A DNA stretch of 56,062 nucleotides. It comes from a virus. Made by a program: the position numbers and the translations under genes. The first letter of the stretch is position 1. The number at the start of each line of letters is the position of its first letter. A model generated the notes under the pieces. That model was not told where the DNA came from, did no database searches, and worked only from the letters and a program-made list of their open reading frames with translations. The stretch lies in the IMG/VR virus record IMGVR_UViG_3300032007_000113; one strand, given 5' to 3'. Of the stretch, positions 3,327-50,229 are shown one piece after another.

Positions 3327-3633
3327 AATCCTCTGCCCAGCTCAGCGTGTGAAGTACCACCGCATTGAGTACCACGACGGCTACGTCACCATTGAGCAGA
3401 ACAGAACGAGACGGAGGGTGCCGGACGGCTACCATTTCGAGGATGACGGACAGTACATCGCCGTCTCGACGTTCTACTCCCACATCTTCCAGCACAAGGC
3501 GACCATCCGCCACTTCGTGCTGAACAAGGAAACGAAGGAGTGGCGCGACTGGCAGACGGTGATCATAGAGCGGCACACGCCTGAGAAACTTACACCAAAG
3601 GAAAGCAACATCATAGAAGAATTGAAAGTATGA
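3301..3633 (+). CDS. hypothetical protein with C-terminal IERHTPEK..KESN motif
   Basis: ATG 3301 (GTG 3298 also possible); C-terminus IIERHTPEKLTPKESNIIEELKV; stop overlaps the SNF2 start (ATGA). Confidence 0.6.
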   Translation: MESDLLENEILCPAQRVKYHRIEYHDGYVTIEQNRTRRRVPDGYHFEDDGQYIAVSTFYSHIFQHKATIRHFVLNKETKEWRDWQTVIIERHTPEKLTPKESNIIEELKV

Positions 3634-17643: not shown

Positions 17644-18143
17644 CACTGGATGCAATCATCTCGTTCATCGGGCTCTTCCTTAGTGGCGGTGCCGGTGCGT
17701 TCTTTACGTGGAAATGGCAGAAGCGCAAGGCCAAGGCCGAGGCCATGACCGCTGAGGTAGATGCTGCCAAAGACATGCAGGACTTGTATCAGCAGATGCT
17801 CTCTGACACCAAGGAAGAGCGCGAAGACCGCAAAAAGCAGATCGACGAACTACGCAGCGAGCGCGACCACTACAAGGACGAGCGCAACGAACTGCGCGAC
17901 AAGATGGAGCAGCTGACGCGCTCGTTCATGGACTGGCGCATCGAGGCCGACAACGACCGCTCGAAGATGAAGATGGACATTGCCAAGCTGGGCAGAAAGG
18001 TGGAGACCATGGTCCCTTTTATGTGTGGCAACCTAACATGCAAAGACCGTCAGCGCGTAGTACTTGCGGACGACGGAACGGTTAGGCCCAAGAAGACAAG
18101 CAAGAAGCAAGATATTGACCCAGTAGAAAGCGATGCACTATGA
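17634..18143 (+). CDS. N-terminal TM + coiled-coil protein (i-spanin-like)
   Basis: ATG 17634 overlaps the holin end; IISFIGLFLSGGAGAFFTW TM then charged coiled coil; C-terminal PFMCGNLTCKDRQRVV motif. Confidence 0.5.
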   Translation: MEITLDAIISFIGLFLSGGAGAFFTWKWQKRKAKAEAMTAEVDAAKDMQDLYQQMLSDTKEEREDRKKQIDELRSERDHYKDERNELRDKMEQLTRSFMDWRIEADNDRSKMKMDIAKLGRKVETMVPFMCGNLTCKDRQRVVLADDGTVRPKKTSKKQDIDPVESDAL

Positions 18144-18586
18144 GCACACTCGTCACCAAGCACTTCACAATAGAAGAACTATACGCCTCGGCAACGGCCA
18201 AGGCGCGAGGCATCGACAACAAGCCCGACGTTCACCAGATGATCAATCTGGTCTATCTGGCCGTCTACGTGCTCGAACCCTTGCGCAAGGCCGTTGGCGA
18301 ACCCATCAAGATAGGCAGCGGCTTCCGCTCGGAGCGACTGAACAAGGCCGTGGGTGGTGTATCGAACTCACAGCATACGAAGGGCCAAGCGGCAGACCTC
18401 TGCATTGACGGCGACATGAAGAAAGGCCGCAGGTGGTTCGACTACATCCGTCAGCATCTCGACTTCGACCAACTGATATGGGAGAAAAACCCCAAGACGG
18501 GCAACTACTGGGTACACGTCAGCTACGTCCATCCCGACTTCGGTCGCAACCGCCGACAAGTCATCGATGGCCTTCTGAAAAAGTAA
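18140..18586 (+). CDS. endolysin, peptidase M15 (D-Ala-D-Ala carboxypeptidase-like) family
   Basis: SGFRSERLNKAVGGVSNSQHTKGQAADL metal-site pattern. Confidence 0.8.
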   Translation: MSTLVTKHFTIEELYASATAKARGIDNKPDVHQMINLVYLAVYVLEPLRKAVGEPIKIGSGFRSERLNKAVGGVSNSQHTKGQAADLCIDGDMKKGRRWFDYIRQHLDFDQLIWEKNPKTGNYWVHVSYVHPDFGRNRRQVIDGLLKK

Positions 18587-18823: not shown

Positions 18824-19132
18824 ATGAAATTTCTCACATTTGAACAAATCCAAGCCCAGCTCCGGCTCGACGATGCACAGGCGACGGAAGAGCACGACCT
18901 GCTGGAGTTGTACGGCGAGGCTGCTGAGGATATGGTGCTGAACACACTGAACCGCACCATCACCGACATCTTCGAGCAGTACGGCACAGTGCCGAAGGCG
19001 TTGGTGCAGGCAGGACTCATGCTTGTGGCACAGTCGTACCAGCACCGCGAACCCATGAGTCCGCAGAACCTCTATACCGTGCCCTACGCCTTCGACCTCC
19101 TGCTTAAGCCGTACATCAAGCTGACCACTTAA
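18824..19132 (+). CDS. head-tail adaptor (gp6-like connector)
   Basis: MKFLTFEQIQAQLRLDDAQATEEHDLLELYGEAAEDMV matches the gp6-like N-terminal pattern. Confidence 0.7.
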   Translation: MKFLTFEQIQAQLRLDDAQATEEHDLLELYGEAAEDMVLNTLNRTITDIFEQYGTVPKALVQAGLMLVAQSYQHREPMSPQNLYTVPYAFDLLLKPYIKLTT

Positions 19133-19147
19133 CCACACATAACGAAT

Positions 19148-19822
19148 ATGGAAACAAAAAAGATATTCTATCAGAGTGACTTCCGACTCGTGGAATCAAG
19201 CGATGCCGGATTCGGGGTGCCGTTCCGTTTTACCTACTACACGGCGAACCCCCTGCAAGCATGGGTGGCTACCTTTGACGGCCACGAGTACACGAACTGC
19301 GAGGTGGACGGCGACGGTAGGTTGTGTGTCGGCTTCGATGACCACAAGCTTGGTGTCGGCACGCTCATGGTTGAGCGTCGTTACTACCTCACCGATGAAC
19401 ACTACCAGAGCGGCATCTGCGATGAGGTGATAGAGCCTACGCCTGTCATCATCACTGAGGAAGAGGAAGGCGTGGAAGTGGAGATGAACGTGGTGCTGGG
19501 CTTCGACGGTTGCACGGCACCTACCGTAACCAGTGAGATACCTCCGTACTGGACGAAGGGCGACAAGGGCGACCCAGGCCCCGTCGGTCCACAAGGCCCG
19601 CAGGGTGAACAAGGCCCCGTCGGTCCGCAAGGCCCACAGGGTGAACAAGGCCCGCAAGGTATCCAGGGCGAACAAGGCCCCGAAGGTCCGAGTGGCGGCA
19701 TGCTATTCCCTACGATGTCGTTTAACCCAGAGACAGGCATCCTGACCGTGCGCGGACTTCAGCAAGAGGTGCAGCGCATCAGTTATGATGAGGAAACTGC
19801 CGAGCTGATCATCAGATTGTAA
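19148..19822 (+). CDS. collagen-like repeat protein
   Basis: [46 protein letters not shown] (15 G-X-Y triplets). Confidence 0.7.
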
Positions 19823-19843
19823 AACCAATAAAAACGAAAAGAT

Positions 19844-21766
19844 ATGGCAAACGAAAACATCCAAGAATTGAAGTTCCAGGTGGGTGAGGCATGGAAGGGT
19901 GTCTATTCTTCCAGTACCGCCTACGGACTGGCTAACGTGGTGCAAGACTCTACTGGCCTGAGCATCTATCGCTCATTGAAGAGCGGCAACGTGGGTCATC
20001 CTGTCAGCGACCGCACATGGTGGTTCTGTATCATCGACCTTTCGAGTATCAAGGAAGAGAGTGAACGCATTGCAGCCCTCAATGAGGCCATCGCACAGGA
20101 CGAAGCCTTGCGCGTGGCAGCAGAGGAATTGCGCCAGCAGCATGAATCGGCACGTATCGCCGCTGAAACCCAGCGCAACGAATCGGAGCAGGCACGCATC
20201 AGTGCCGAACAAGCCCGTGTGAATGCTGAAAGCGCAAGGGCAACAGCAGAGCAGCAGCGCATCACGGCTGAACAAGGTCGCGTGAGTGCCGAGTCAGCAC
20301 GAGTGCAAGCAGAGCAAGCCCGTGTATTGGCTGAAACTCTCCGTGCCAATGCCGAGGATGCTCGTGCAGCAGCAGAAATCAACCGCAATGCCGCTGAACA
20401 GCAGCGCATCACCAATGAGCAAGCACGCGAGACGCAGTATGCGGCAGATCATACACAGGCGGTAGCCGACCACGAGACAGCTACCGCCGACCACACACAG
20501 GCAGAACAAGACCATACACAGGCCGAGGAAGACCACACACAGGCAGGTGATGACCATACCCGTGCGGAAAGTGACCATACCACAGCGGCAAGTGACCACA
20601 CCCAGGCAGGCAGTGACCACACCACCGCTGCCGCCGACCACACACAGGCGACAACAGACCATACCCGTGCGGAGAGCGACCACGGCATTGCGGCTGCTGA
20701 CCATCAGCAGGCCGTTCAAGACCATGAGACGCTGGCTCCTACCGTGGCAGAGCATACCCAGCAGATAGCGGGGTTGGGCACCAGTAAGCAGGACGTCATC
20801 GCCAATCTTGCCACTATAGCGATGGGAAGCGGTGTTAGTCACGATGACACCTACTCCGACATTCGCACAGCAACGATTGCCAACTTTATCCTGTTGACTA
20901 ATGCAAAGGTAGATATATTATTCACCACTCCGATTAACGCAGCAGATGCAACGCTCGACGTGAGTCTGACGGGTGCAAAGCCCATCCGCATCCTCGGACA
21001 GAACCTGCCCGCTGGAGTGGTGAAGGCACAGACCTACGTGACAATGGCCTACGACGGCACGGCATGGAATATCACCAACATCTTCTGTCCTGACGCATCG
21101 TTCGACCCCGCTGCACTCGTGGTGGATATGGGTCTGCCTTCAGGCGTGAAGTGGGCTGCCCGTGACATCGACCTGACCAAGCCTGGCGGATTCTGCGAGA
21201 CGCCGTTCATCTACGAGAAGAGCTTCTTCAGTTGGGGCAACATCGACGGCCATAACCCCAGCAGCGCGTCGGCCTTCGCCTACGACTGGGGCGGCGTGAA
21301 CGGAGCCGAACCGTGGTATGATGGTCAGGTATATGGCAGTACGCCAGGCAACACGCTGACAGGTAACATCGCCGTGGGTGAAGATTTCGACGCAGCCCGT
21401 GCCAACCTTGGAGAGCCTTGGCGTATGCCAACAAGTGCCGAGTTCGCGGAGCTGTTCGCCAATATCAAGTACATCAATGCTGACGGCACGGAGGTGGACA
21501 CCACAAAGGCCGACAAGCGAGTGACCGTGAATGGCGTGATGGGCCTCTATCTGGAGAGCAAAATCAACGGCGCACGTCTGTTCTTCTCCTGCTCGGGCGA
21601 CGGCAATGGCCGCACGTGGGACAACAGAGGGTCGATCGGCTACTACTGGTCTTCCACTTGGCTCTCAGCCCGCTACGCACGGCTCCTGCACTTCTACTCA
21701 GGCGGAGTCATTCCGCAGAACTACTACTATCGGTACGTCGGTTTCGCCTTGAGGCCTGTGCAGTAA
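19844..21766 (+). CDS. DGR target protein: coiled-coil fibre-like protein with C-terminal lectin/FGE-like variable domain
   Basis: Last 188 nt before the stop are the VR; AEQAR and DHTQA low-complexity repeats; C-terminus GYYWSS...GFALRPVQ. Confidence 0.85.
   Translation: MANENIQELKFQVGEAWKGVYSSSTAYGLANVVQDSTGLSIYRSLKSGNVGHPVSDRTWWFCIIDLSSIKEESERIAALNEAIAQDEALRVAAEELRQQHESARIAAETQRNESEQARISAEQARVNAESARATAEQQRITAEQGRVSAESARVQAEQARVLAETLRANAEDARAAAEINRNAAEQQRITNEQARETQYAADHTQAVADHETATADHTQAEQDHTQAEEDHTQAGDDHTRAESDHTTAASDHTQAGSDHTTAAADHTQATTDHTRAESDHGIAAADHQQAVQDHETLAPTVAEHTQQIAGLGTSKQDVIANLATIAMGSGVSHDDTYSDIRTATIANFILLTNAKVDILFTTPINAADATLDVSLTGAKPIRILGQNLPAGVVKAQTYVTMAYDGTAWNITNIFCPDASFDPAALVVDMGLPSGVKWAARDIDLTKPGGFCETPFIYEKSFFSWGNIDGHNPSSASAFAYDWGGVNGAEPWYDGQVYGSTPGNTLTGNIAVGEDFDAARANLGEPWRMPTSAEFAELFANIKYINADGTEVDTTKADKRVTVNGVMGLYLESKINGARLFFSCSGDGNGRTWDNRGSIGYYWSSTWLSARYARLLHFYSGGVIPQNYYYRYVGFALRPVQ
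21576..21763 (+). repeat. DGR variable repeat (VR)
   Basis: 188-nt match to 22736..22923 with 17 mismatches, every one opposite a TR adenine. Confidence 0.92.
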
Positions 21767-21782
21767 CTTAACTTTTTCGTTC
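21765..21782 (+). repeat. left arm of an 18-nt perfect inverted repeat (partner 22581..22598)
   Basis: aacttaactttttcgttc, reverse complement gaacgaaaaagttaagtt. Confidence 0.85.
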
Positions 21783-21797
21783 ACCCGAAAGAGTTCA

Positions 21798-21863
21798 ATC
21801 TATTTCTGTCTTGTCGCGCGTCCAACGCGCCGACAGGCGCGGCGCGACAAGGCGGGAATAGAT
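21798..21863 (+). other. GC-rich nested hairpin/cruciform 35 nt downstream of VR
   Basis: atctatt/aatagat, cttgtcgcgc/gcgcgacaag and cgcgcc-gaca-ggcgcg stems. Confidence 0.75.
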
Positions 21864-21895
21864 GCTAAGAATGGATAGAAAAGATACATAAAGAT

Positions 21896-22540
21896 ATGGC
21901 AAAATTAGCAGACATCCTGCAACAAGAACGCGAACGCGACACAGCAGATCAGTGGGGCATCATCCACCTCTACAAGACTGGCTCGTTTTATTCGGCATAC
22001 GAGTGGAGCGCGTGGCTCATCTCCGTCATCACATTCAACGACGAGGTGCGCATGGCGACGAAAGACCGCAGGCCAATAGCCGTGACGCGCCTCCCGATGA
22101 AGGATAGCAACGAGACCTTCTGCCGCGTTGGATTTCCGCTAAAGAGCATTGAGAAGTATATCCCCACACGACTTGACTTCAACAGCGAGGACGATAAGCA
22201 TATTGTTATCACCGTAGCCTTGCCACAACCGCAGGACGGCAGCGAAGTAACCTACGAGCGGTTGTCAGAAGCGATAAAGAAGTGGAAGGAGGCACAGCCG
22301 ATGAAGCAACCAAAGGACAAGAAGGATAGCGACCCGCAGGAAGACACCGACCGCCAGCCCGCACAAGGTAAGCCGAAGCGGACGCTGCTGTCGCTGATAC
22401 AAGAGGCACAACAGCAGCAGGCACCGGCGCAAGGCGGTCTGATCATGCAGATTATGTCATATCAACTCTCACAGCATACGCCAGCGGAAAACTACGATTT
22501 TATCCAACGGCTGCAACAACAGATAGCATCCATTCTCTAA
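21896..22540 (+). CDS. DGR accessory protein, MutS-domain-I-like N-terminus (not a canonical Avd)
   Basis: IIHLYKTGSFYSAYEWSA...RLPMK...RVGFPLKSIEKYIP parallels the MutS pattern LFYRMGDFYELF..DA...IPMAGIP....YL; lies between VR and TR. Confidence 0.55.
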   Translation: MAKLADILQQERERDTADQWGIIHLYKTGSFYSAYEWSAWLISVITFNDEVRMATKDRRPIAVTRLPMKDSNETFCRVGFPLKSIEKYIPTRLDFNSEDDKHIVITVALPQPQDGSEVTYERLSEAIKKWKEAQPMKQPKDKKDSDPQEDTDRQPAQGKPKRTLLSLIQEAQQQQAPAQGGLIMQIMSYQLSQHTPAENYDFIQRLQQQIASIL

Positions 22541-22580
22541 CAGCAAGCACACCTCAGATGAGTCCGTCACACCAAAAGCA

Positions 22581-22598
22581 GAACGAAAAAGTTAAGTT
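22581..22598 (+). repeat. right arm of the 18-nt inverted repeat (partner 21765..21782)
   Basis: gaacgaaaaagttaagtt. Confidence 0.85.
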
Positions 22599-22735
22599 CA
22601 TAGGTTGCCCGTCATACCTCCGTGGGAGGCGTGAAAAAAGAAAGACGAGCAGTGGCTTCCGCCTCATGGATTCCGCAGCACCAGTCGTATAGGTGGCAAC
22701 CGACGCAAAAACATCAACAGTACACAGCCTTCAGG

Positions 22736-22923
22736 GTCTGTTCTTCTCCTGCTCGGGCAACGGCAATGGCCGCACGTGGAACAACAGAGGGTCGAACGGC
22801 AACTACTGGTCTTCCACTTGGAACTCAGCCCGCAACGCACGGAACCTGAACTTCAACTCAGGCGGAGTCAATCCGCAGAACAACAACAATCGGTACAACG
22901 GTTTCGCCTTGAGGCCTGTGCAG
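22736..22923 (+). repeat. DGR template repeat (TR)
   Basis: Carries 17 AAC/AAT codons in the VR-equivalent frame; lies 29 nt upstream of the RT start. Confidence 0.92.
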
Positions 22924-22952
22924 CACTTCTCAATTTCTTCTGAACATTCTTA

Positions 22953-24143
22953 ATGACGAACCAACTTGCTGCCGGATGCTATCATCTTACACGCTCGCAA
23001 CTGCTCTACGACCTCTATGTGGCCTTCTACGATGCTGCAAGGCATAAACACAAGATGTCGTATGTACAGAAGTTCGAGCAAAACCTGCGCCAGAACCTCG
23101 AAGAACTTTGCGACGATCTGCTGACACGCAGATATAAGGCACTTCCCTCGAAGTGCTTTATTGTTTCTTACCCCAAGAAGCGCGAGGTGTTTTGCGCTGC
23201 CTTCCGCGACCGCATCATACATCACCTTTATTTCCGCTACACACACCAACTATTCGAGCGCACCTTCATTGCCGACAGTTATTCCTGCATCGAAGGGCGC
23301 GGCACCCACTACGGCATCAGTCGTATTCGTCAGCATATCCGCGAAGCCTCGCTCAACTGGCAAGAACCCGCCTATGCCATGAGCCTTGACATTCGTGGCT
23401 ATTTCATGCACATCAATCGTGAGAAACTGCTGAAGATAGCCACCGATTCGCTCCGCAAGATGAGCACCCACCGCGTAGGACTGAGCGAAGACATAGAGGG
23501 CATACCAAGCGGCGTGCTGCTGAAACCTGCAACACGTTGGTGTGACATCCGAGACTTTGACTTCATCCTGTGGCTCACCGAGCAGATAGTCATGCTTGAC
23601 CCGATGGAACATTGCATCATCGTTGGCGACCTCCATGATTGGGACGATATAGACCATGCCAAATGTATGCGCTTCGCAGAGCCAGGTGTGGCATTGCCCA
23701 TCGGTAATCTTACCTCGCAACTCTTCAGCAACGTCTATTTGAACGTCTTCGACCAATTCATCAAGCGCGACATCAAGTGTCGTCACTATGGACGCTATGT
23801 GGATGATTCGGTACAGATAGACACTGACCGCGAATGGCTCATCCAGCAAGTGCCACAAGAACGGGAGTTCCTGGCTGATGAATTAGGCTTACAACTGCAC
23901 ATGGGTAAACTCCACATTCAGGAGATACACAGCGGCGTGGAATTTCTTGGTTCTTTTGTGAAACCCTACCGCGACTACGTGAGCAATAAGACGCTGGAGC
24001 GCATGACTAAGAAGATACAGGAGATAGACCTTCGCAACGAAGAGAAAGCACGGCGCACAATAGATTCATACCTCGGCATTTTGAGCCACACGGCAAGTCG
24101 TTGCATCACACAAGATTTACTGAGTAAACCCCTGGCAGCATAA
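22953..24143 (+). CDS. DGR reverse transcriptase
   Basis: LPIGNLTSQLFSNVYLN (I/LGxxxSQ hallmark), GRYVDDSV (YxDD), 396 aa. Confidence 0.9.
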   Translation: MTNQLAAGCYHLTRSQLLYDLYVAFYDAARHKHKMSYVQKFEQNLRQNLEELCDDLLTRRYKALPSKCFIVSYPKKREVFCAAFRDRIIHHLYFRYTHQLFERTFIADSYSCIEGRGTHYGISRIRQHIREASLNWQEPAYAMSLDIRGYFMHINREKLLKIATDSLRKMSTHRVGLSEDIEGIPSGVLLKPATRWCDIRDFDFILWLTEQIVMLDPMEHCIIVGDLHDWDDIDHAKCMRFAEPGVALPIGNLTSQLFSNVYLNVFDQFIKRDIKCRHYGRYVDDSVQIDTDREWLIQQVPQEREFLADELGLQLHMGKLHIQEIHSGVEFLGSFVKPYRDYVSNKTLERMTKKIQEIDLRNEEKARRTIDSYLGILSHTASRCITQDLLSKPLAA

Positions 24144-24178
24144 TGCACGATAAGTAGAGACTTTAAACGCAAACGATT

Positions 24179-24721
24179 ATGAATAAAGTAAACGGAAAGA
24201 AGACCTCCTTCGCACCGATACGCGAAGATGGCAGCCGTATCACCATCTGCTACGGCATGACCAAGGCGAGTGGCGACCTATATGAGTGGTATGAAATCTA
24301 TCTGCCAAAGAAGCAGAACGCGCAACTGACGTTACAGCTGGTGAAGGATGCTATTGAGAATGACATCAACAGCCGCGTGGACGAAAAAATCCTTTGTAGC
24401 TATCCTTGGACTGTGCTGCATGGTGATGATGCAGGCAAGGACGTGAAGGTATGGCTGTCGAAGGAGAACCAAAGCAACTTCAAGGCAAAGTATGACTTGC
24501 ACTTCACCAAGCCGGAGGCTCTGACCTTCCCCACCATCTACAAGATAGCAGAGGACGATGACCACAATGCCGTGTTTGAGGTCTTCCAGAACTTCGAGGA
24601 GCTGGAAGCATTCTATCTCGGCGGTATTGCCTACATCGAGCAATGCTATCAGGCCGGCTGGCAGGAGAAGGGCGGCATAGACTGGACACCCTACGAGGAC
24701 TATTTCAAGACCGAAGAGTAA
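24179..24721 (+). CDS. hypothetical protein
   Basis: 180-aa ORF. Confidence 0.55.
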   Translation: MNKVNGKKTSFAPIREDGSRITICYGMTKASGDLYEWYEIYLPKKQNAQLTLQLVKDAIENDINSRVDEKILCSYPWTVLHGDDAGKDVKVWLSKENQSNFKAKYDLHFTKPEALTFPTIYKIAEDDDHNAVFEVFQNFEELEAFYLGGIAYIEQCYQAGWQEKGGIDWTPYEDYFKTEE

Positions 24722-25039
24722 ATGGCATACACAAGTGGACTATTGAAGTACCGCGTGACGATCCTGAACAAGCAGGTGGCGAGTGGGTTTGGTGAGACTA
24801 CTTCTTACCAGCCTGCTGCTACCGTTTGGGCGGATGTGACGTGGTCAAAGGGTGTGAAGGCTTTGCGTGAGGGTGCCCTCGATGCCTATGACACGGTGCT
24901 CATTCGCATGAGGTATAACGACGTGGTGACGCGTGACTCCCGGTTGCAACATGATGGCGTGACGTATCAGATTCAATCGCTACACGCTGACCGTCAGGAG
25001 AACACCATTCAGATCACAGCTACGGAAATCGTAAAATAG
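24722..25039 (+). CDS. head closure protein (SPP1 gp16 / HK97 gp7-like)
   Basis: TVWADVTWSKG...LIRMRYNDVVTRDSRLQHDGVTYQIQS fits the head-tail joining family pattern. Confidence 0.7.
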   Translation: MAYTSGLLKYRVTILNKQVASGFGETTSYQPAATVWADVTWSKGVKALREGALDAYDTVLIRMRYNDVVTRDSRLQHDGVTYQIQSLHADRQENTIQITATEIVK

Positions 25040-25923: not shown

Positions 25924-27288
25924 ATGAGTTTTTTCAGTAATCTTTTCAAAGCGGCTACGCCCGAGAACACCATCATGTTGCGCGAGGCACCACAGACCCC
26001 CGGTGTTCCTTCGAGCACCATGCCACCTGAACCTCCGAAGGTGGAGGGCGGCGACTACATGGAGCGCATCGTGGCGACGCGAAGCCCCGAGGCGGCTTGT
26101 TCCGTGTCGGCGGTCTATCGTGCCGTGACGCTGCGTGGCGACACGATGGGCGTGATGCCGGTTCAGTACCGCAAAAAAGACTTCGAGGGCGGCAACTTCG
26201 TACAGGACATGCGCGGCCTGGGCAAGCGTATCAACTATCTGTTGCAGGAGGAAGCGAACCCCATCATGACGGCTCCCGACCTGTGGAACCTCGTGGAACT
26301 GAACCGCACACTGACGGGCAACGGCTTCGTGTATATCGAGCGCGACGAGTTCGGTTTCCCGCTTCACTTGTGGCTCGTGAAGGAGTGCGGCTACAACATC
26401 AACACCGCGACCTACGCCAGCATCGTGTTCCTGACCGACAAGGGCTACAGGACGGAGGTGAACGTGCCGACCTCGGACGTGCTGCACTTCCCGAACAACT
26501 TCCGCTACCCGAACGGCTGGGGCAAATCGACGTTGCTCTACGCTTTCGAGGCTCTGACGCTGAACCGCACCCTGCGCTCGCAGGCACTCGACACGGCGGC
26601 AAAGGGCGGTCGTATCAAGGGTATCATCTCGGAGAAACAGCCGACGCAGGGACAAGGCACACTGGCCTTCGGACTGCTGAATCAGGACGAGGTGCACAAG
26701 ACTGCCCAGGAGATGCAGAAGAAGTTCTACTCAGGTCACGACATCGTGTCGATGCACGGCCTCGAATCGTTCCAGAACCTCTCGATGACCGCACAGGATA
26801 TGCAGATGCTGGAGCAACTGGGTATCACCTACGACGACGTGGCCCGCTATTGGGGCGTACCGCGTCCGCTGCTGATGCTTGACACCAACTCGCACTACAA
26901 CGACTATCAGAACGCCACGATGGAGTTCCACACCCGTACCATCCTGCCGCTGAAGAACCGCAACGAGAAGGAGATTGCCCGCAAGCTCATCGGCATGAAG
27001 GACTACGGCACCCGCGACATCCACATCTGCGAAGACCCGCTGATGGTGATGGACCCCGAACGCCGCGCGAAGGTGGCACAGCTGAAGATGCAGGCAGGAC
27101 TCTGCACCGTGAACGAAGCCCGCCGCGACTTCGATATGCCTGCCGTGGAGGATGGCGACGTGCCAATGGCATCGGCAAACCTCATGACGCTGAAAGCCCT
27201 CATCGCCAAGAGCGACGCTGCCCAGCAGCTGAAGCCCGGCAACTACACCGTGGGCGAATCGCCAAAGGAGGGCGAGGAAACCGCATGA
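25924..27288 (+). CDS. portal protein (HK97 family)
   Basis: 454-aa ORF directly upstream of protease and MCP; typical length and position. Confidence 0.8.
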   Translation: MSFFSNLFKAATPENTIMLREAPQTPGVPSSTMPPEPPKVEGGDYMERIVATRSPEAACSVSAVYRAVTLRGDTMGVMPVQYRKKDFEGGNFVQDMRGLGKRINYLLQEEANPIMTAPDLWNLVELNRTLTGNGFVYIERDEFGFPLHLWLVKECGYNINTATYASIVFLTDKGYRTEVNVPTSDVLHFPNNFRYPNGWGKSTLLYAFEALTLNRTLRSQALDTAAKGGRIKGIISEKQPTQGQGTLAFGLLNQDEVHKTAQEMQKKFYSGHDIVSMHGLESFQNLSMTAQDMQMLEQLGITYDDVARYWGVPRPLLMLDTNSHYNDYQNATMEFHTRTILPLKNRNEKEIARKLIGMKDYGTRDIHICEDPLMVMDPERRAKVAQLKMQAGLCTVNEARRDFDMPAVEDGDVPMASANLMTLKALIAKSDAAQQLKPGNYTVGESPKEGEETA

Positions 27289-27548: not shown

Positions 27549-28397
27549 ATGAAACAGACAAGATTCATCCCAACCGACACTTGCGGGCTGCATGTCCGTG
27601 AAACGGAGGACGGTCAGCAGAGCCGCACCATCGAGGGCAAGCCCATCGTGTTCGGTGTGCGTTCCGTAAACCTGACACCGTGGAGCGAAACCCGCGAGGT
27701 GTATGAGGTGCTGGAGCCTGGATGTATCACCAACGAGTTGTTGCAACGCTCCGACGTGATCCTCAATCTGAACCACTCCAGTATGGTTCCCGACGTGCTG
27801 GGTCGCTGCAAGAACGGCAACGGCACACTCTCTCTGCGGCTTGCAGGCGACCACATCGAGTGCCGCTGCGAACTGCCCAACACCAACAACGCCAACGATG
27901 CACTGGAGTTGATGAAGCGCGGCGACATCAGCGGCATGTCCTTCGCATTCCAGGACGACTACCAGGACAGCGAGAACGGTGTAAGTTACGAGCGCACCGC
28001 CGAGACCCACGACGGCAAGGAAGTGTGGCTTCGTCATGTGAAGCGCATCACCGGGCTGTACGATGTCGCCATCGTCACACACCCTGCCTACGAGCAGACC
28101 AGTGTCGCCACCCGTGAGGCATCGGAGGCTATCGACAAGGCGATTGAGGAGCAGCTGAAGCGCGAGTGTGGCGACGACGAAGCCAAGAAGAAGGCTGAGG
28201 AAGAAGCCAAGGCCGAAGAGGAGCGCAAAGCAGCCGAGGAAGCCGCCAAGCGTGAAGCCGAGGCAAAGGCCAAGGAGGAGGAAGAGCAGCGTCAGCTCGA
28301 AGAGCAGGAGCAGCGATTCCGCGAACAGCAGGCCATGCGTCTGCGTGCCAAGGCCCGCCGACTCAACGACGAAATTTTATCATCACTCGAATATTAA
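27549..28397 (+). CDS. prohead serine protease (HK97 family) with E/K/A-rich coiled-coil C-terminal extension
   Basis: NLNHS..VLGRC...GDISGMSFAF protease core; C-terminal KKKAEEEAKAEEERKAAEEAAKREAEAKAKEEEEQRQLEEQE. Confidence 0.8.
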   Translation: MKQTRFIPTDTCGLHVRETEDGQQSRTIEGKPIVFGVRSVNLTPWSETREVYEVLEPGCITNELLQRSDVILNLNHSSMVPDVLGRCKNGNGTLSLRLAGDHIECRCELPNTNNANDALELMKRGDISGMSFAFQDDYQDSENGVSYERTAETHDGKEVWLRHVKRITGLYDVAIVTHPAYEQTSVATREASEAIDKAIEEQLKRECGDDEAKKKAEEEAKAEEERKAAEEAAKREAEAKAKEEEEQRQLEEQEQRFREQQAMRLRAKARRLNDEILSSLEY

Positions 28398-28418: not shown

Positions 28419-29666
28419 ATGAAAGAAATGACAAAGACCCAGATTCAGGAGCGTCAACTCGCTATCATGAATCGCATGCACGAGATGGAGGAGAAGTCTC
28501 GTGAGGCTAACAACGGCAACATCCTCTTCACCGAGGCCGAGTCTGCCGAGTATCGTTCACTCGTTGATGAGTCTGCCGGACTCAGCGCACGTGCCAAGGC
28601 TATGGCCAGCGGCAAGGAGCTGGAGCAGATTCGTGAGCGCGAGGACTTGGGCAAGAAGCTCCGTGAGCGCATCAAGGAGTGCTCACAGAAGCGTGAGAAC
28701 GCCACCACCGTACTGGCTAACAAGGTGACTGGCGATGCTGGTGGCGACAACAACACCTATGCCAACCTCGAGGCTGGTGGCTTGATCCCCGTGACCATCA
28801 AGGAAATCATCGACACCAAGGTTGCAGGCATCGAACTGCCCGACGACCTGAAGCTGGTGATGGGTGTGACTGGCACCGAGATTATCCCCTACAGCACCAA
28901 CGACGTGGTGTTCTCTGTTGAGGGCGAGGTGACTAAGGTAGGCGAGCAGGCTCTGAACTTCGCCAACATCAAGGCACAGCCGCAGCGTATCGCTGCCAGC
29001 GTTCCCGTGAGCTTCCGTGCTATCGACAACGCCGCCTTCGACATCATCGCCTTCATCACCTACAAGTTCCAGAAGGGCTGGGCTATCTTCCGTGCTCTCC
29101 ACGTCTATGCACACGGTGAGTATCAGCCCGTTCAGGGTCCATTCGCCAAGGTGGAGGTTGTAGAGCTGACCAACGACGAGAATCTACCTAAGAATCTCGC
29201 TAAGGAGGCTGCCAAGATGTATGACCTCGGCTTCGAGGGCGATCCTGTGTTCATCATGGACAAGGTGACTGAGGTTGACCTGAAGTTCAAGGCTCTCATC
29301 CCCGGCTCTACTGGTGAGCGTACTGCCATCGAGGACGGCCTGTGCTTGGGCTACAAGTACGTCGTATCTCCTTACATCGACTACGCTATCGCCAGCAACG
29401 GCACTGCCACCAAGGACGGCCAGTACCGCTACATCGGTATCGGTCACTTCGGCTATCTGGCAGAGCAGCAGCACGGTGAGTTCCGCTTCAACATCGACGG
29501 CACCAGCCAGGCCAACTTCGACCGTGGCACGGTTGCTATCGGCATGACCACCGACTACTCGCTGACCGAGCTCTCCGGCAAGGTGAACAACGGCAACGGC
29601 ACTCCCCAGGCCTTCAAGCTCATCAAACTCGTTGAGCCCGCTTCTTCTAACGAGATTGGCGGCTAA
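28419..29666 (+). CDS. major capsid protein (HK97 fold family)
   Basis: 415 aa, N-terminal coiled delta-like region, position after the protease. Confidence 0.8.
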   Translation: MKEMTKTQIQERQLAIMNRMHEMEEKSREANNGNILFTEAESAEYRSLVDESAGLSARAKAMASGKELEQIREREDLGKKLRERIKECSQKRENATTVLANKVTGDAGGDNNTYANLEAGGLIPVTIKEIIDTKVAGIELPDDLKLVMGVTGTEIIPYSTNDVVFSVEGEVTKVGEQALNFANIKAQPQRIAASVPVSFRAIDNAAFDIIAFITYKFQKGWAIFRALHVYAHGEYQPVQGPFAKVEVVELTNDENLPKNLAKEAAKMYDLGFEGDPVFIMDKVTEVDLKFKALIPGSTGERTAIEDGLCLGYKYVVSPYIDYAIASNGTATKDGQYRYIGIGHFGYLAEQQHGEFRFNIDGTSQANFDRGTVAIGMTTDYSLTELSGKVNNGNGTPQAFKLIKLVEPASSNEIGG

Positions 29667-30440: not shown

Positions 30441-32945
30441 ATGGCAAAAGACATAATAACCAGGTTCAAACTTGAAACCACCGGCTTTGACTCCAAGATA
30501 AAAGAGGCGGCCAAGAACTTGTCTGCGTACAGCAAGACCGCCACCCAAGCCAAAGAGGGTTTCAACCAGTTCACCAAGGCTAACGTGGATGCAGCCCGTG
30601 CGCTCGGCTCGATGGCCACCAGCACCACCAACGTCAAGGATAGGGTAAAGGAGCTGGTGGGTGCATACAATGATGCCGCCAAAGCATACGAAGCCCTGAC
30701 CAAGGAACAGCAGCAGAGTGACTGGGCAAAGGCTCTCGCCGGTTCGCTGACGCAGTTGCAGCAGCGCATCCGTGAAGCCAAAACCGAGATGCAAGGTCTC
30801 AGTACTGACACCAAAGGCGGCATCTTCAGCGGACTGAGCGGCAAGATGGAGGGTGCATTGGCTGTCTTTGGCGGTAACATGATGACCAAGGCGGCTGGGG
30901 CCATTGCCAGCCTGGGCACTGAGATGTTCAACTCCGTGCAGCAGGGCATTGAACTTGCCAAGCAGGGTGAGGGCATCCGCGTAGCCTTTGAGCGTCTGGG
31001 CAATGGTCAGATACTTGACGGACTGCGTGAAGCCACCCACGGCACCGTGACAGACATCGAACTGATGAAAGCTGCCGTGAAGTTCAACGACTTCAAGCTG
31101 CCTGTGGAAGAGTTGGGCACCATGCTCGCATTCGCTCAACAGAAAGCCAAGGACACCGGGCAAAGCGTTGACTACATGGTGGACAGCATCGTGACTGGAC
31201 TCGGTCGTAAGTCGCTCATGATACTCGACAACCTCGGACTATCAGCCAATGAGGTCAAGGAGAAGATGAAGGAAACGGGCGACATGACCAAGGCCGTCGG
31301 TTCCATCATCCGTGAGCAAATGGCATCAGCAGGCGACTATGTGGAGACCGCAGCCGACCGTGCCGCACAAGCCAACGTGAGCCTGCAAAACAAGATGGAG
31401 GAGTTGGGCCGCAAGTTTGCACCACTCGAAGAAGCCAGCAACAGCCTGTGGACTTCTATGAAGATTGGCATCCTCGACATCATCGGTGGCCCGCTCGCTA
31501 CGCTGCTGAACCAGCTCACGCAGGCCGGACGCATGGCTAATGCCTACGGACTGATGGGTGGCAATGCCAAGGTGGGGCGCATGACCGCCAACCTTGCAGG
31601 CGCAAGCGAAGGGAAACGGCAAAGCATCTACCAACAGCAGCAGGAACAGTTCTGGCGGTATATCAATCCACGCGAGCAGCAGATTAGAGATATACGTGCA
31701 TGGCAAAGTGGTGATCGCAACGAAGCGTTACAGAAGCGTATCGGTGCAATCACAAAGAAGTACGGCTCACTCGACGCTACCAAGATTCAGGCCGAAGTGG
31801 ATGCAGCCAAGAAGATGCTCTCCGACTATCAGGCAGCGGCCAAACAGATTCTTCAGCCCGTCAATATCAACACCAAGCAGGCTGAACAGAACGTCGCATC
31901 GCTCCGCAAGCAGCTAAAGGAACTGGAGGAACAGCGAAAGAAAGCAATCAAAGCTGGCGACCAGGAACAGGTGGAAAACCTGACCAAACAAATCAGCCAG
32001 GTCAAGAACAACATAGGTTATCTCGATCCTAATGCTTTGAAGTCGAATAAGACTATTAAAACAGAGATACAGAAAAACGAGGAAAAAATAAAAAAGCTGT
32101 CGGTGGAGTATGCCAAACTTGGTGATTCAGAGACCGAGGCAGCACGTAAGCGTCAGGCGGAGATACAGAAGGAAATCGAACTGCTGAAACAGCGCAACGG
32201 CCTACTTGGACTGCGTGCAGAACAGGCACAAGGACGATTAACACTTAAAACCAGTGACTTTGCCTTTGGAGGGGCTTCAGGCGACGGCCTGCTTGCTAAC
32301 CCGTTTGCGTCTGACGACAAGTCAATGAACATCAAAGGCTCACTTGGTCTACAACTCGACCCATCGGTATTGGCAGAAGCGCAGAAGGATGCCGATTCGT
32401 ATATTGACCAGCTGGTCAAGGGTGCCAAGCAGACTGAGAAAGCGTGGGGAATGGCAGGCCAGGCCGTTCAAGGCATCGGTTCGGCATTCGCCATGATTGA
32501 CGACCCAGCGGCAAAGGTTGCCGGCACTGTCATGCAGGCCATCGCCAGCGTCGCACTGGGTTTCGCTATGGCTTCTAAATCCGCCGACACGGTGGCTTCT
32601 GGTTGGGGATGGTTGGCGTGGTTGGGAGCAGGTGCTACGGCAATGGCTACCACCATCGCAACCATCCACTCGTTGACCGGCTACGCCTCTGGTGGTGTCA
32701 TCAAGGGCAATAGCTACAGCGGCGACAACATTATGGGCATGGTGGACGGCGGCGGCATCGTCGGACTGAATGCTGGAGAAATTGTGCTCAACAAAGCGCA
32801 GACTGCGAACGTGGCCAACGAACTGACGAACAATCAGCCAAGGTCTATGCGCGTAAACGGTCGAATCAGCGGCCATGACATCGTGCTGGCGGCTGACCGC
32901 TCGCTGGCACAGGAGGGAAAAGGGCACATAGTAACGTGGAAGTAG
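30441..32945 (+). CDS. tail tape measure protein
   Basis: 834 aa, long helical/coiled regions, TP901-type core (ELMKAAVKFNDF...VDSIVTGLGRKSLMILDNLGL), Gly/Ala-rich TM-like C-terminal segment. Confidence 0.8.
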   Translation: MAKDIITRFKLETTGFDSKIKEAAKNLSAYSKTATQAKEGFNQFTKANVDAARALGSMATSTTNVKDRVKELVGAYNDAAKAYEALTKEQQQSDWAKALAGSLTQLQQRIREAKTEMQGLSTDTKGGIFSGLSGKMEGALAVFGGNMMTKAAGAIASLGTEMFNSVQQGIELAKQGEGIRVAFERLGNGQILDGLREATHGTVTDIELMKAAVKFNDFKLPVEELGTMLAFAQQKAKDTGQSVDYMVDSIVTGLGRKSLMILDNLGLSANEVKEKMKETGDMTKAVGSIIREQMASAGDYVETAADRAAQANVSLQNKMEELGRKFAPLEEASNSLWTSMKIGILDIIGGPLATLLNQLTQAGRMANAYGLMGGNAKVGRMTANLAGASEGKRQSIYQQQQEQFWRYINPREQQIRDIRAWQSGDRNEALQKRIGAITKKYGSLDATKIQAEVDAAKKMLSDYQAAAKQILQPVNINTKQAEQNVASLRKQLKELEEQRKKAIKAGDQEQVENLTKQISQVKNNIGYLDPNALKSNKTIKTEIQKNEEKIKKLSVEYAKLGDSETEAARKRQAEIQKEIELLKQRNGLLGLRAEQAQGRLTLKTSDFAFGGASGDGLLANPFASDDKSMNIKGSLGLQLDPSVLAEAQKDADSYIDQLVKGAKQTEKAWGMAGQAVQGIGSAFAMIDDPAAKVAGTVMQAIASVALGFAMASKSADTVASGWGWLAWLGAGATAMATTIATIHSLTGYASGGVIKGNSYSGDNIMGMVDGGGIVGLNAGEIVLNKAQTANVANELTNNQPRSMRVNGRISGHDIVLAADRSLAQEGKGHIVTWK

Positions 32946-49925: not shown

Positions 49926-50229
49926 GGGGGTATTTTGGTTTTGATTGCTGATGGAAGGCAAGAAATCGTGCAAGCAGTCATGCTTTGAAATGGCAAAACA
50001 AATAAACGCTAAGGTTGTCAATATGACTCCCCGTGCTAACATGCTGGCAGCAGCATAAGCACCTCGCGGGTGACTTGCGAAGGAACATAAAGGTCACGTC
50101 TCACGTTTTCCGCGTTTTCTCAAAATGCGGTGGTGGAACGCTCGTCCAGCTATCTGGTCAGCCCCAACGCACGTAACAAAGTTTCTATAATAAGTCAGTA
50201 AGACGAGGGTTCGACTCCCTCTACCTCCA
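49926..50229 (+). ncRNA. ssrA: transfer-messenger RNA (tmRNA)
   Basis: Acceptor GGGGGTA/TACCTCC with G3:U70; T-arm gaggg-TTCGACT-ccctc; helix 2a ttgctga (49945-51)/tcagtaa (50195-201); tag frame GCA 49993 to TAA 50056-58 encodes AKQINAKVVNMTPRANMLAAA. Confidence 0.85.

Follow-up and report, generated by a model that had tools for sequence, protein, structure and literature searches.

A phage diversity-generating retroelement with a MutS-like accessory protein and a candidate RNA anchor 5' of its template repeat

We consider it very probable that the window analysed here, a 56,062-nt stretch of viral DNA, carries a complete and active phage diversity-generating retroelement (DGR) that works with an Msl-type accessory protein, lacks Avd and uses an RNA anchor located 5' of its template repeat (TR). 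Taken as a whole, this reading explains the evidence best.

The gene order is target with variable repeat (VR), accessory gene, TR and reverse transcriptase (RT), all co-oriented on the + strand. The original prediction had named these parts in this order, and each lies where it had been placed: a 640-aa target whose last 188 coding nucleotides are the VR, directly before the TAA stop, an accessory ORF, a 188-nt TR and an RT with the DGR hallmarks LPIGNLTSQ and YVDD. Its description of the parts as canonical was overstated; the parts are present, but the accessory protein resembles MutS domain I and no Avd is detectable. The coding features and repeats are as follows.

19844-21766, + strand: target gene, an ORF of 640 aa with a variable N-terminal part, a heptad-repeat coiled coil and a putatively lectin-like C-terminal domain ending in the VR
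20159-20712, + strand: heptad (21-nt) repeats of AEQAR and DHTQA type (direct-repeat families D1 and D4-D6, 21-nt spacing)
21056-21763, + strand: C-terminal domain of ~236 aa, Fib_succ_major / Lcl_C (DUF1566) type, from weak Pfam and NCBIfam matches
21576-21763, + strand: VR, 188 nt, 17 mismatches to the TR, all at TR adenines
21896-22540, + strand: accessory gene, 214-aa MutS-domain-I-like (Msl-type) protein, from Foldseek, BFVD and Pfam MutS_I
22736-22923, + strand: TR, 188 nt, with 47 adenines and 17 AAY codons
22953-24143, + strand: DGR RT, 396 aa, from Pfam RVT_1, phrog_1423 ('reverse transcriptase') and motifs
24179-24721, + strand: ORF of 180 aa, always 3' of the RT, phrog_19239, of unknown function

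Diversification of a phage structural protein

The VR is 91% identical to the TR at a constant offset of 1160 nt. All 17 mismatches replace a TR adenine with G, T or C, and in the target frame they affect the first and second codon positions only. Because adenine makes up 25% of the TR (47/188), the chance that 17 of 17 mismatches would hit adenines is below 1e-10. Codon positions 1 and 2 hold 42 of the 47 TR adenines, and each of the 14 amino-acid differences exchanges an Asn of the TR for another residue. The VR codes for the final 62 residues of the target. Its last mismatch is at 21738, and the following 25 nt are identical to the TR, giving an invariant, IMH-like 3' end (21739-21763, + strand; GGTTTCGCCTTGAGGCCTGTGCAG). 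No second VR was found on either strand of the whole 56-kb window. The RT matches phrog_1423 at 1.7e-75, as well as Pfam RVT_1, and carries IGNLTSQ (IGN at residue 250, SQ at 255) and YVDD (at 282); no RT of an isolated phage, Bordetella BPP-1-type phages included, exceeds 35.5% identity to it.

Related loci further support the DGR reading through adenine-specific VR variation. A-biased TR/VR pairs occur in 34 of them. Among four close metagenome relatives, VR variation touches 31 of the 43 invariant TR-A columns versus 2 of 106 non-A columns, which implies an actively diversifying lineage; their TRs are identical at 154-158 of 163 positions and their VRs at 132-136 of 163. Between contigs with 90-94% identical RTs and near-identical TRs, VR differences are confined almost entirely to adenine positions, about 30 of them, a pattern that requires recent, repeated homing. 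The DGR is thus apparently active in its lineage, as judged from differences between contigs rather than within one population. That same scope would suit a fossil element, in which TR, VR and RT were inherited, mutagenic homing ceased in this phage and the VR differences are old. In one relative (L050), deletion has removed the TR and most of the accessory and RT genes, which shows that DGRs are sometimes lost within the phage group. Even so, we judge a fossil highly improbable: against it stand the VR differences between contigs with such similar RTs, the intact ORFs, the catalytic YVDD and IGNLTSQ motifs, the 17 AAY codons kept in the TR, and the selection on the RNA element and its pairing described below.

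The window also encodes terminase, portal, protease, major head protein, tape-measure-like protein, endolysin and integrase, and its contig ends overlap, indicating a circular assembly. The carrier would be a temperate, siphovirus-like phage of rumen Prevotella; we infer the host from two Prevotella MAGs that contain the same RNA element and cassette and from one homologue named as Prevotella. Whether the 180-aa ORF belongs to the DGR is uncertain: it follows the RT in nearly all related loci and has diverged far more than the RT has.

Conservation of the target among related loci is confined to its final ~320 residues, the N-terminal part being mosaic. The predicted AEQAR and DHTQA coiled-coil repeats are borne out by a 21-nt periodicity, with AEQAR-type units at about 20159-20436 and ten copies of the DHTQA-type unit at 20447-20712. 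The coiled-coil region matches phrog_17134 and phrog_23208, annotated 'virion structural protein'. The C-terminal domain had been predicted to adopt a lectin/FGE-like fold. Its lectin-like part gains weak backing from matches to Fib_succ_major (E 0.0037) and Lcl_C/DUF1566 (E 0.0083), both below Pfam cut-offs, and FGE falls away, as the domain has no FGE-sulfatase match. Fib_succ_major is matched by 24 of 31 homologues. An AlphaFold model has pLDDT 22-30 across the VR part and gave no meaningful fold matches. The matches weakly suggest a lectin-like domain of the CLec2 class (as defined by Wu et al. 2017), whose binding surface would have a potential repertoire of up to roughly 6e24 variants.

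The target is plausibly a fibre or a host-binding tip. Favouring this are the heptad repeats, the PHROG match to virion structural proteins and the gene directly upstream, which encodes collagen repeats and matches many PHROG tail-fibre families. Position speaks against a simple tail fibre: the cassette is flanked by genes for a gp6-like head-tail connector (Phage_connect_1) and for head closure (Phage_HCP / phrog_25), outside any obvious tail-fibre module, with the portal, protease and major head protein genes shortly downstream and the tape-measure-like gene (30441-32945) distant. This placement, together with a long N-terminal coiled coil in which no tail-fibre attachment domain was recognised, would also suit a head, neck or collar fibre or another decoration protein rather than a tail-tip receptor-binding protein; such a protein would provide loose adherence, for instance to mucus, plant material or cell-surface glycans, and not primary receptor recognition. 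We hold this alternative to be possible but rather unlikely, given the adjoining tail-fibre-type gene, a Pfam 'Phage tail tip domain' in one homologue of the variable domain and the precedent of characterised phages, whose DGR targets are tail fibres (BPP-1 Mtd; literature). The diversified surface most likely serves adsorption to varying host surface structures.

A MutS-like protein as sole accessory

In the accessory protein (pI 5.98), a variable linker joins an N-terminal domain (residues ~1-135) to a conserved C-terminal helix. Its structural model (pLDDT 63) includes beta-strands and so is not a four-helix bundle. In a Foldseek search against the PDB, the top 13 matches to this model are all MutS (probability 0.77-0.98), as are the top two in a BFVD structure search. 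Pfam MutS_I (PF01624) is matched by 36 of 77 family representatives, at best with 9.9e-5; the window protein itself has no Pfam match, and hhalign gives it a probability of 2-9% against MutS_I. These comparisons suggest a divergent, Msl-like MutS domain I, with similarity that is weak for the window protein itself. A tblastn search of the protein against 50,697 phage records returned no match.

The accessory gene is kept in every related locus. A search of the 56-kb phage for Avd found none (48 small ORFs; 22 Pfam families matched, none of them Avd), and the cassette holds no further gene, since its conserved order leaves no room for one. Msl is the sole accessory gene here and in all 50-odd relatives.

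A structured RNA and its complement beyond the VR

The noncoding features of the cassette lie after the VR and on either side of the TR.

21765-21782, + strand: target flank directly 3' of the VR, AACTTAACTTTTTCGTTC, exact reverse complement of 22581-22598
21770-21795, + strand: local hairpin just past the stop codon, its 5' arm part of the VR flank, from DNA folding
21798-21863, + strand: long inverted repeat (I1), a hairpin/cruciform element downstream of the VR, from repeat search and folding
22581-22598, + strand: 'guide' segment at the 5' edge of the RNA element, GAACGAAAAAGTTAAGTT, complementary to the VR flank 21765-21782
22591-22710, + strand: structured non-coding RNA element, 120 nt, 5' of the TR, from covariation and covariance model R1
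22924-22952, + strand: TR-to-RT spacer, 29 nt, starting with conserved CACTTC (IMH*-like flank), from an alignment of 29 loci

The RNA element folds into three helices (P1-P3) and contains invariant AAGUUCAUAGG and GAAAAA..AAAGA motifs. By RNAalifold and pair counts, 96.9% of cells are paired and 16 of 23 pairs show compensatory changes, values that none of 500 shuffles reached. Covariance model R1 scores 120.5 bits at the window element and matches 47 of 52 sources, once each and on the + strand; Rfam holds no match. In the spacer on the other side of the TR, CAGCACTYNTC is conserved across the 29 aligned loci and the remainder is variable.

The guide is perfectly complementary to the VR flank over 18 nt, whereas shuffles average 7.4 and never exceed 11. 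Pairing begins at the second base of the target stop codon and recurs in the same register, with covarying pairs, in about 30 of 34 loci. It covaries across 22 distinct lineage variants, with perfect complementarity of 12-18 nt, and is weak or absent in three lineages (L025, L045 and L048). Of the 18 guide positions, 15.0 on average match the VR flank and 9.0 the TR flank; in the TR 3' flank the match is short and imperfect, covering about 6-7 of its first 8 nt. By these comparative measures, both purifying and compensatory selection act on the RNA element and on the pairing of guide and flank.

Covariation tells only that this pairing matters, not between which molecules, and the match could instead fold a single polycistronic transcript of target, accessory gene, TR and RT into a long-range RNA-RNA stem. 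The accessory ORF would then be looped out and the stem would act as a processing or stability site, for example for RNase III making the 5' end of the DGR RNA, and not as a device for DNA target recognition. A co-transcript is plausible, as both segments lie on one strand ~800 nt apart among co-oriented genes; the stretch separating them showed no convincing promoter or terminator, and in many loci the flank also pairs with a local partner, which allows alternative RNA conformations. Yet G-U-type pairs are almost absent from the duplex (a G-T wobble in 2 of about 30 non-Watson-Crick cells), though adjacent RNA helices use them freely, which fits RNA-DNA or DNA-level pairing. In every lineage the duplex is fixed precisely to the edge of the VR, and the invariant AAGUUCAUAGG motif directly adjoins its RNA strand, a placement expected of a homing anchor and unnecessary for a processing stem. 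The TR flank, moreover, has kept a degenerate version of the complement in matching register, a pattern like that of IMH*. On balance we give the RNA-RNA stem a minority chance and favour an anchor for homing.

The DNA beyond the VR is itself structured (21764-21895; fold z-score -6.55). The local hairpin also scored as a weak terminator-like site. The tip of the inverted repeat (21826-21841) forms a GC-rich 6-bp stem with a GACA tetraloop. In relatives, GC stems of 5-7 bp with differing sequences follow the VR; the tetraloop is G-initial in 21 of 34 loci and of GNNA type in 19 of those 21. This hairpin resembles that of Guo et al. 2011, which has a 5'-GRNA loop and lies 4-34 nt from the VR, yet here the distance is 62 nt.

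A proposed anchor mechanism and related systems

In the RNA-anchor model, the 5' RNA element would bind the RT and, by analogy with BPP-1 only, take the role of the 3' spacer (Sp) RNA. The guide 3' end would be placed on the TR 3' flank, where cDNA synthesis would start, a priming site likewise proposed by BPP-1 analogy alone; the GUUCAUAGG region is the expected site of cDNA 5' ends or branch points. The RT would copy the TR, misincorporating opposite adenines, to yield an RNA-cDNA molecule collinear with the target bottom strand (flank plus VR). The mismatch-free guide and the invariant 25-nt VR end would then anchor this molecule on the target sense strand rather than on the TR. Such anchoring would provide directionality, the equivalent of IMH versus IMH*, and so may send cDNA to the VR and not the TR. 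Msl may bind the mismatched cDNA:VR heteroduplex, or DNA or RNA, and could thereby let the heteroduplex escape mismatch repair or aid installation.

The prototype DGR of BPP-1 (order mtd-avd-TR-Sp-brt), whose retrohoming step is still not understood in the literature, shares with this element the order of target with C-terminal VR, accessory gene, TR and RT, the adenine-specific TR-to-VR differences, the invariant IMH-like VR end and a GC-rich tetraloop hairpin after the VR (GRNA consensus); a short RNA duplex at the TR 3' boundary is plausible in both. Unlike BPP-1, the window element has Msl in place of Avd, and its structured RNA lies 5' of the TR with a 3' gap of 29 nt, whereas the BPP-1 Sp is 140 nt long and 3' of the TR. 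Covarying complementarity of 12-18 nt joins RNA to DNA beyond the VR here; in BPP-1 the match is limited to 9 nt (Sp about 48-56 with the VR IMH), not above chance, and the hairpin is 4 nt from the VR rather than 62.

The Msl class (Architecture D of Wu et al. 2017, the Legionella DGR and the Bacteroides Bfr/Bth/Bun DGRs), compared here by features, likewise has small accessory proteins (112-283 aa versus 214 aa) of near-neutral pI that resemble the MutS mismatch-recognition domain I, and CLec2 / DUF1566 / Fib_succ_major-type targets in Bacteroidota. Published Msl DGRs also encode Avd, whereas the window and its 50-odd relatives have Msl only; the Bacteroides Msl DGRs diversify cellular pilus proteins on ICEs, while this one lies in a phage structural region. 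Bacteroides uniformis Bacuni phages F1, F2 and F4, also Bacteroidota siphophages, have a DUF1566/Fib_succ_major target with C-terminal VR, the same order of target, accessory gene, TR and RT with the TR abutting the RT gene, and a GC hairpin after the VR (loop GAAA). Their accessory is Avd, however, RT identity is about 30%, and they lack guide-flank complementarity (longest run 8, equal to shuffles).

Group IIC introns offer a purely functional analogy. They use a DNA stem-loop plus short EBS-IBS RNA-DNA pairing, and thus also combine an RT-associated structured RNA with a short target-DNA complement beside a DNA hairpin; the hairpin analogy was already drawn by Guo et al. 2011. Ribozyme, splicing and intron insertion are absent here, the pairing partner lies 3' of the replaced region, and the RNA-DNA pairing itself is putative.

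This element departs from the canonical DGR in the absence of a detectable Avd with Msl as sole accessory, in the structured RNA 5' of the TR and in the guide-flank complementarity. The last of these may offer a clue to how such elements find their targets.

The retroelement, its target and its phage

The region 19844–24143 is a complete diversity-generating retroelement (DGR), a system of known kind. The original prediction described a target gene ending in a variable repeat (VR), an accessory gene, a template repeat (TR) and a reverse transcriptase (RT). The ORF map, the repeat comparison and the RT motif and family matches confirm this arrangement, including the 188-nt TR and a VR formed by the last 188 coding nucleotides of a 640-aa target:

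19844–24143, plus strand: the DGR
19844–21766, plus strand: target ORF, 640 aa
21896–22540, plus strand: accessory ORF, 214 aa
22953–24143, plus strand: RT ORF, 396 aa

These ORFs are co-oriented with one another and with an 86-aa ORF at 22693–22953. We rejected the latter as a gene; it is the TR read in the VR frame.

The repeat finder returned one long direct repeat, the VR–TR pair (21576–21763 and 22736–22923; 188 nt, 91% identical). Base by base, all 17 mismatches are an A in TR and a G, T or C in VR. Adenines occupy 47 of the 188 TR positions (25%), and the random expectation for 17 of 17 mismatches falling on them is below 1e-10. Every mismatch lies on target codon position 1 or 2, as do 42 of the 47 TR adenines in the target frame, and 17 TR codons are AAY. 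The resulting 14 amino-acid differences all replace Asn with another residue, and the theoretical repertoire computed from TR is about 6e24 target proteins. TR homology ends exactly at the last sense codon of the target. Over its final 25 nt VR does not differ from TR, which gives it a tail like the IMH, the invariant 3' end of a VR. A-tolerant matching of TR found no second VR on either strand of the window.

The RT carries both DGR hallmarks of the original prediction: IGNLTSQ at residues 250–256, which fits motif 4 ([I/L]GxxxSQ), and YVDD at residue 282, which fits the catalytic YxDD. It matches Pfam RVT_1 and the PHROG reverse-transcriptase family phrog_1423 (1.7e-75). Its relatives in isolated phages include those of Bordetella, Bacteroides and crAss-type DGR phages, a class assignment made by motifs and family matches rather than by RT phylogeny, and the best identity among them is at most 35.5%. 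Adenine-confined TR/VR differences, a DGR-type RT, a coding VR, an IMH-like end with a hairpin, and, as read between related contigs, ongoing adenine mutagenesis are all found here.

Using the RT as query, we retrieved 50 related loci from IMG/VR. An adenine-biased TR/VR pair is present in every locus with enough upstream sequence (34 loci), and an alignment of 15 pairs shows conserved TRs alongside VRs that differ at AAY codons. Among the four closest phages, whose RTs are 90–94% identical, TRs agree at 154–158 of 163 positions and VRs at 132–136 of 163. At columns where TR is invariant, VR varies in 31 of 43 adenine columns and 2 of 106 non-adenine columns. The A-site hypervariation that the original prediction proposed to look for is thus found between related contigs. 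As read from these alignments, in which contigs are compared and not the reads of a single sample, diversification in the lineage is adenine-specific.

One relative, L050 (IMGVR_UViG_3300021426_000761), carries at 4812–5065 a clean deletion that fuses accessory residues 1–41 to RT residues 348–396, taking out the TR, most of the accessory and RT genes and the RNA element described below. It keeps the target gene, whose C-terminal domain is 77% identical. L050 is a natural DGR-loss derivative, so loss of the element also happens in this group.

Conservation across relatives is limited to the last ~320 target residues; the N-terminal coiled coil has been swapped among the phages. The repeat finder confirmed the heptad-coding 21-nt repeats behind that coiled coil, for which the original prediction had noted AEQAR and DHTQA repeats. 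More than 1,100 homologues were found for the C-terminal 236 residues, and Fib_succ_major, Lcl_C/DUF1566 or phage tail-tip domains occur in some of them. The window's own domain matches Fib_succ_major (E 0.0037), Lcl_C (E 0.0083) and TIGR02145 (E 0.013) below curated cut-offs, and its homologues match Fib_succ_major in 24 of 31 cases and Lcl_C in 17 of 31. Matches of ‘category d / CLec2’ DGR targets are typically ‘weak and mixed’ (Wu et al.). The sub-threshold matches hint that the window's domain belongs to this DUF1566 / Fib_succ_major class.

AlphaFold2 modeled the C-terminal domain with a mean pLDDT of 55 (22–30 in the VR-encoded part), and Foldseek with this low-confidence model returned only noise, nothing better than E = 3. 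A lectin fold is likely from the family matches. Of the lectin/FGE-like domain first proposed, the lectin part has the weak Fib_succ_major and Lcl_C matches; the domain has no FGE-sulfatase match. The target most likely acts in adsorption. It may instead be a neck or head fibre, given that its gene sits with a connector gene on one side and a head-closure gene on the other.

PHROG and Pfam scans show phage genes across the window, identifying it as phage DNA:

110–2140: large terminase
18140–18586: endolysin
18824–19132: gp6-like head-tail connector
19148–19822, plus strand: collagen-repeat protein with many tail-fibre family matches (PHROG)
24179–24721, plus strand: 180-aa ORF of phrog_19239, a family with no assigned function (PHROG)
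24722–25039: head closure
25924–27288: portal
27549–28397: protease
28419–29666: major head protein
30441–32945: tape-measure-like protein
36568–37776, minus strand: integrase

The scans also found primase and anti-repressor genes. The window starts and finishes with one shared stretch of ~30 nt: its first 25 nt are found again at 56033, and its last 25 nt at position 6. This indicates a circular assembly of ~56.03 kb, and the window is probably a complete phage genome. The predicted integrase suggests a temperate lifestyle. Homologues of window proteins are abundant in metagenomes, some labelled Prevotella, and the same cassette occurs in two Prevotella MAG contigs (reticulum of roe deer and of goat); on these grounds we regard the phage as a temperate phage of rumen Prevotella. 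Across 50,697 phage records, neither a nucleotide search with the 4.3-kb cassette nor tblastn with the accessory protein gave a match, so the element is not in an isolated, annotated phage.

The genes bordering the cassette differ in their distribution. The collagen-like protein immediately upstream of the target, with GPxG / Gly-X-Y repeats and a 9/18-nt periodicity at 19550–19690, occurs in few relatives (L007, L008, L050, L051). Nearly all related loci carry the acidic 180-aa ORF directly after the RT, but its sequence has diverged far more (one example is 46–61% identity where the RT has 91–93%). It may serve as another accessory gene, or it may just open the adjoining mosaic module of the phage. 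Elsewhere, a tmRNA gene lies at 49926–50232 on the plus strand (Rfam RF00023, 69.7 bits, gathering score 47, E 4e-25), with an ARAGORN-predicted tag peptide of AKVVNMTPRANMLAAA* and a 3' end of CCACUA rather than CCACCA. A helicase-like gene (phrog_62, 1.3e-63) and then a PAPS-reductase-like gene (phrog_2302, 1.1e-109) occupy 3630–6090 on the plus strand; together with HNH, DNA methylase, ParB_N and HIRAN domains among small ORFs elsewhere in the window, they may form a DNA-modification or anti-restriction module.

Accessory protein and template RNA

Avd, a basic four-helix bundle, is typical of most DGRs and absent from a large minority. The accessory protein encoded here is of another kind. 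It has no Pfam, PHROG or NCBIfam match, 238 close homologues, and a family of at least 559 clusters at 50% identity in an exhaustive profile search; the best 150 of the 559 clusters are short proteins of 62–221 aa, mostly ~170–220 aa. In alignment, the accessory protein shows two conserved parts, an N-terminal domain (~1–135) and a C-terminal helix, joined by a charged linker that varies; Phe31 and Glu36 are among the conserved residues. AlphaFold2 predicts a mixed alpha/beta protein with beta-strands and no helical bundle (pLDDT 63; N-terminal domain 60–83).

Structure and family searches of this protein converge on MutS. All 13 top PDB Foldseek matches are MutS/MSH proteins, aligned on domain I (prob 0.77–0.98, E 0.02–0.12), and the top two matches among viral models (BFVD) are a MutS from a giant virus and a protein labelled ‘MutS-like N-terminal domain’. 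Pfam MutS_I (PF01624) is matched by 36 of 77 diverse family representatives (best 9.9e-5), every other family by at most two. For the window protein alone, MutS is below detection by sequence, and a profile search against PDB sequences found nothing relevant. With the E. coli MutS reference, verified as 1e3m_A, hhalign over residues 1–118 gave 2–9% probability, yet aligned the expected GxFY and GFP motifs. The MutS link rests on the fold search and the family Pfam matches because these sequence-only links are weak.

The protein has 214 aa and a pI of 5.98, and it is encoded between target and TR in all loci. Msl proteins, a class of DGR accessory proteins, have 112–283 aa and a near-neutral pI and are encoded inside DGR cassettes (Wu et al. 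2017). Judged by its predicted fold and family matches, the accessory protein belongs to this ‘MSL/Msl’ class, which Wu et al. 2017 and the Bacteroides study describe. Those two studies report Msl together with Avd, and all published Msl DGRs carry avd in the cassette; here neither the cassette nor the rest of the phage has one. The accessory ORF and the phage's other small ORFs (48) gave no Avd-family Pfam match, and the conserved order of target, Msl, RNA element, TR and RT leaves no room for avd in any relative. The original claim of a full canonical set therefore holds for an accessory ORF of 214 aa in the right place but not for a canonical Avd, in whose stead stands a MutS_I-like protein. 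A missing Avd does not exclude DGR membership, since Avd-less DGRs were reported by Wu et al. 2017.

Between the accessory gene and TR lies a structured RNA:

22591–22710, plus strand: RNA element, 120 nt, 120.5 bits with covariance model R1

When the 230 nt preceding TR are aligned across 29 loci, a non-coding block stands out that is conserved even at 56% RT identity. RNAalifold places three helices in it, a 7–8-bp closing stem (P1), a 9-bp hairpin (P2) and a 7–8-bp hairpin (P3), separated by the invariant motifs AAGUUCAUAGG and GAAAAA..AAAGA; the minimum-free-energy fold of the window sequence agrees. Across the alignment, 96.9% of cells are paired, against at most 62% with slid partners. 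Compensatory double changes occur in 16 of 23 pairs (82 cells in total), a covariation that none of 500 shuffles reached. G-U pairs occur in the helices (19 sequences have U-G at one such position) and identify the plus-strand RNA as the one that folds.

R1, built from 20 sequences, matched 47 of 52 sources, once each, on the plus strand upstream of TR; the other five either have no sequence upstream of the RT or carry the L050 deletion. A GTDB pattern scan with AAGTTCATAGGNNNNNCGTC gave at least 120 matching stretches, and among the 80 GTDB loci listed (L052–L131) only the two Prevotella MAG contigs passed R1. Rfam 15, including its RT-associated motifs, holds no counterpart (no match at E <= 5 in 21700–23400), and at gathering score only the tmRNA matched in the whole window.

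In BPP-1, the Bordetella phage with the prototype DGR, a 140-nt spacer RNA (Sp) 3' of TR envelops the RT and primes cDNA synthesis. By analogy, the 5' RNA element would be the functional counterpart of Sp on the opposite side of TR. The gap from TR to the RT start codon is 29 nt in the window, and only CAGCACTYNTC is conserved there. In seven relatives (L011, L012, L014, L016, L018, L019, L023), an additional ~100 nt of conserved sequence lies between the RNA element and TR, which are 25 nt apart in the window; the distance is therefore flexible. A scan of 19000–24800 for sigma-70 promoters and intrinsic terminators, which does not cover Bacteroidota promoters, gave counts no higher than shuffles.

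Complementarity and hairpins at the VR boundary

The 5' edge of the RNA element is complementary to the DNA just 3' of VR:

22581–22598, plus strand: guide, GAACGAAAAAGTTAAGTT, 18 nt, exact reverse complement of 21765–21782
21765–21782, plus strand: flank, AACTTAACTTTTTCGTTC, starting at the second base of the target stop codon

Against this 18-nt run, the longest run in shuffled flanks averaged 7.4 and never exceeded 11. The complementarity is shown by about 30 of 34 loci in constant register, with uninterrupted runs of 8–18 nt. They hold 22 distinct guide/flank sequence combinations, whose anchored runs average 12.9 nt for cognate and 6.5 nt for non-cognate pairs, and positions 5–15 each show up to four Watson-Crick pair types. 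Compared across loci in this way, guide–flank pairing is covariation rather than shared ancestry of a fixed motif. In three relatives (L025, L045, L048), VR/TR homology continues through CAGCAC and the target ends two residues later; their complementarity is weak or bulged, making them exceptions for any pairing model.

In the same register, the guide matches the VR flank at 15.0 of 18 positions and the TR 3' flank at 9.0 of 18, the latter retaining matches at ~6–7 of the first 8 positions. This is the pattern to be expected of a decoy resembling IMH*, the TR counterpart of the IMH, and of a short priming duplex. Because the guide's 3' end abuts the VR boundary, a strand of guide RNA and then TR-templated cDNA would run collinear with flank plus VR on the bottom strand. 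An RNA–cDNA primed beside the guide could then anneal to the target sense strand through a mismatch-free anchor that TR lacks. cDNA 5' ends would be joined at or beside GUUCAUAGG (22596–22604), and the DGR RNA would have its 5' end at or upstream of 22581.

Tentatively, and as a possibility short of probable, we propose a template RNA reversed relative to BPP-1, with the RT-binding and priming structure 5' of TR and a 12–18-nt guide pairing with sense-strand DNA directly 3' of VR. RNA-to-target-flank complementarity may in this way explain target choice. The duplex contains almost no G-T wobble, unlike P1–P3. The main rival reads the same complementarity as a long-range RNA–RNA stem that marks a processing site within one polycistronic transcript; it too is a possibility short of probable.

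Bacuni_F1, an Avd-type Bacteroides phage DGR, has no guide–flank complementarity. BPP-1 has only a 9-nt match, between Sp ~48–56 and the VR IMH, which is not above shuffles (mean 7.8, maximum 13). We therefore treat the complementarity as lineage-specific. In BPP-1 (L172, NC_005357) the Sp segment AGGUGGUCA, ~47–55 nt after TR, complements exactly the VR IMH sequence TGACCACCT, where the TR IMH* reads TGCCCATCACCT. The segment adjoins the published priming adenosine, Sp A56, a parallel to guide–flank pairing in the window. Recent BPP-1 work proposes that cDNA anneals to single-stranded target DNA at replication forks, and calls the homing step not understood.

Folded as DNA, the 132 nt after the target stop codon are more stable than shuffles (z = -6.55) and contain two structures:

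21770–21795, plus strand: small hairpin using part of the flank (DNA fold)
21798–21863, plus strand: long inverted repeat with tip CGCGCC-GACA-GGCGCG at 21826–21841 (DNA fold)

In relatives the tip keeps a 5–7-bp GC stem of varying sequence whose sides covary. Its tetraloop begins with G in 21 of 34 loci (GACA in ten, also GTAA, GGAA, GTCA, GAAA, GATA and GATG), and more distant loci have a CCCA loop. Homing in BPP-1 requires a hairpin or cruciform with a 5'-GRNA loop, at a published distance of 4–34 nt from VR. The hairpin here resembles it in its GC stem and GRNA-like loop but lies 62 nt from VR in the window (41–67 nt). We rejected intrinsic termination as the main role of the inverted repeat, since no T-run follows it.

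A distinct variant and its implications

DGRs are, to our knowledge, the most powerful natural protein diversifiers known, and they are being developed as directed-evolution tools. How mutagenized cDNA finds and replaces VR, and why TR is spared, the literature still calls not understood. The DGR described here is a distinct variant, with Msl only and no Avd, a structured template RNA 5' of TR and a covarying complementarity between that RNA and the target flank. These last features have no counterpart that we found in Rfam or in the open-access literature searched. The lineage amounts to a natural experiment in which Avd is lost, a MutS-domain-I-like protein alone is kept, and template RNA and VR flank covary in their complementarity. 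As the sole accessory, such a protein would link homing to the handling of mismatched heteroduplex DNA.

If guide–flank pairing targets the cDNA, the RNA–cDNA would be anchored by RNA–DNA pairing, so that target choice and the discrimination of VR from TR would be programmed by RNA rather than by protein. This would be the first sequence-level explanation of DGR retrohoming specificity. Specificity would be reprogrammable by a simple retargeting rule, changing guide and flank together over ~15 nt. Independently of the targeting model, three findings are new for these rumen Prevotella phages, which form a large, uncultured group: the accessory family of at least 559 clusters, the 120-nt RNA without an Rfam match, and an Msl-only cassette architecture conserved throughout the group.
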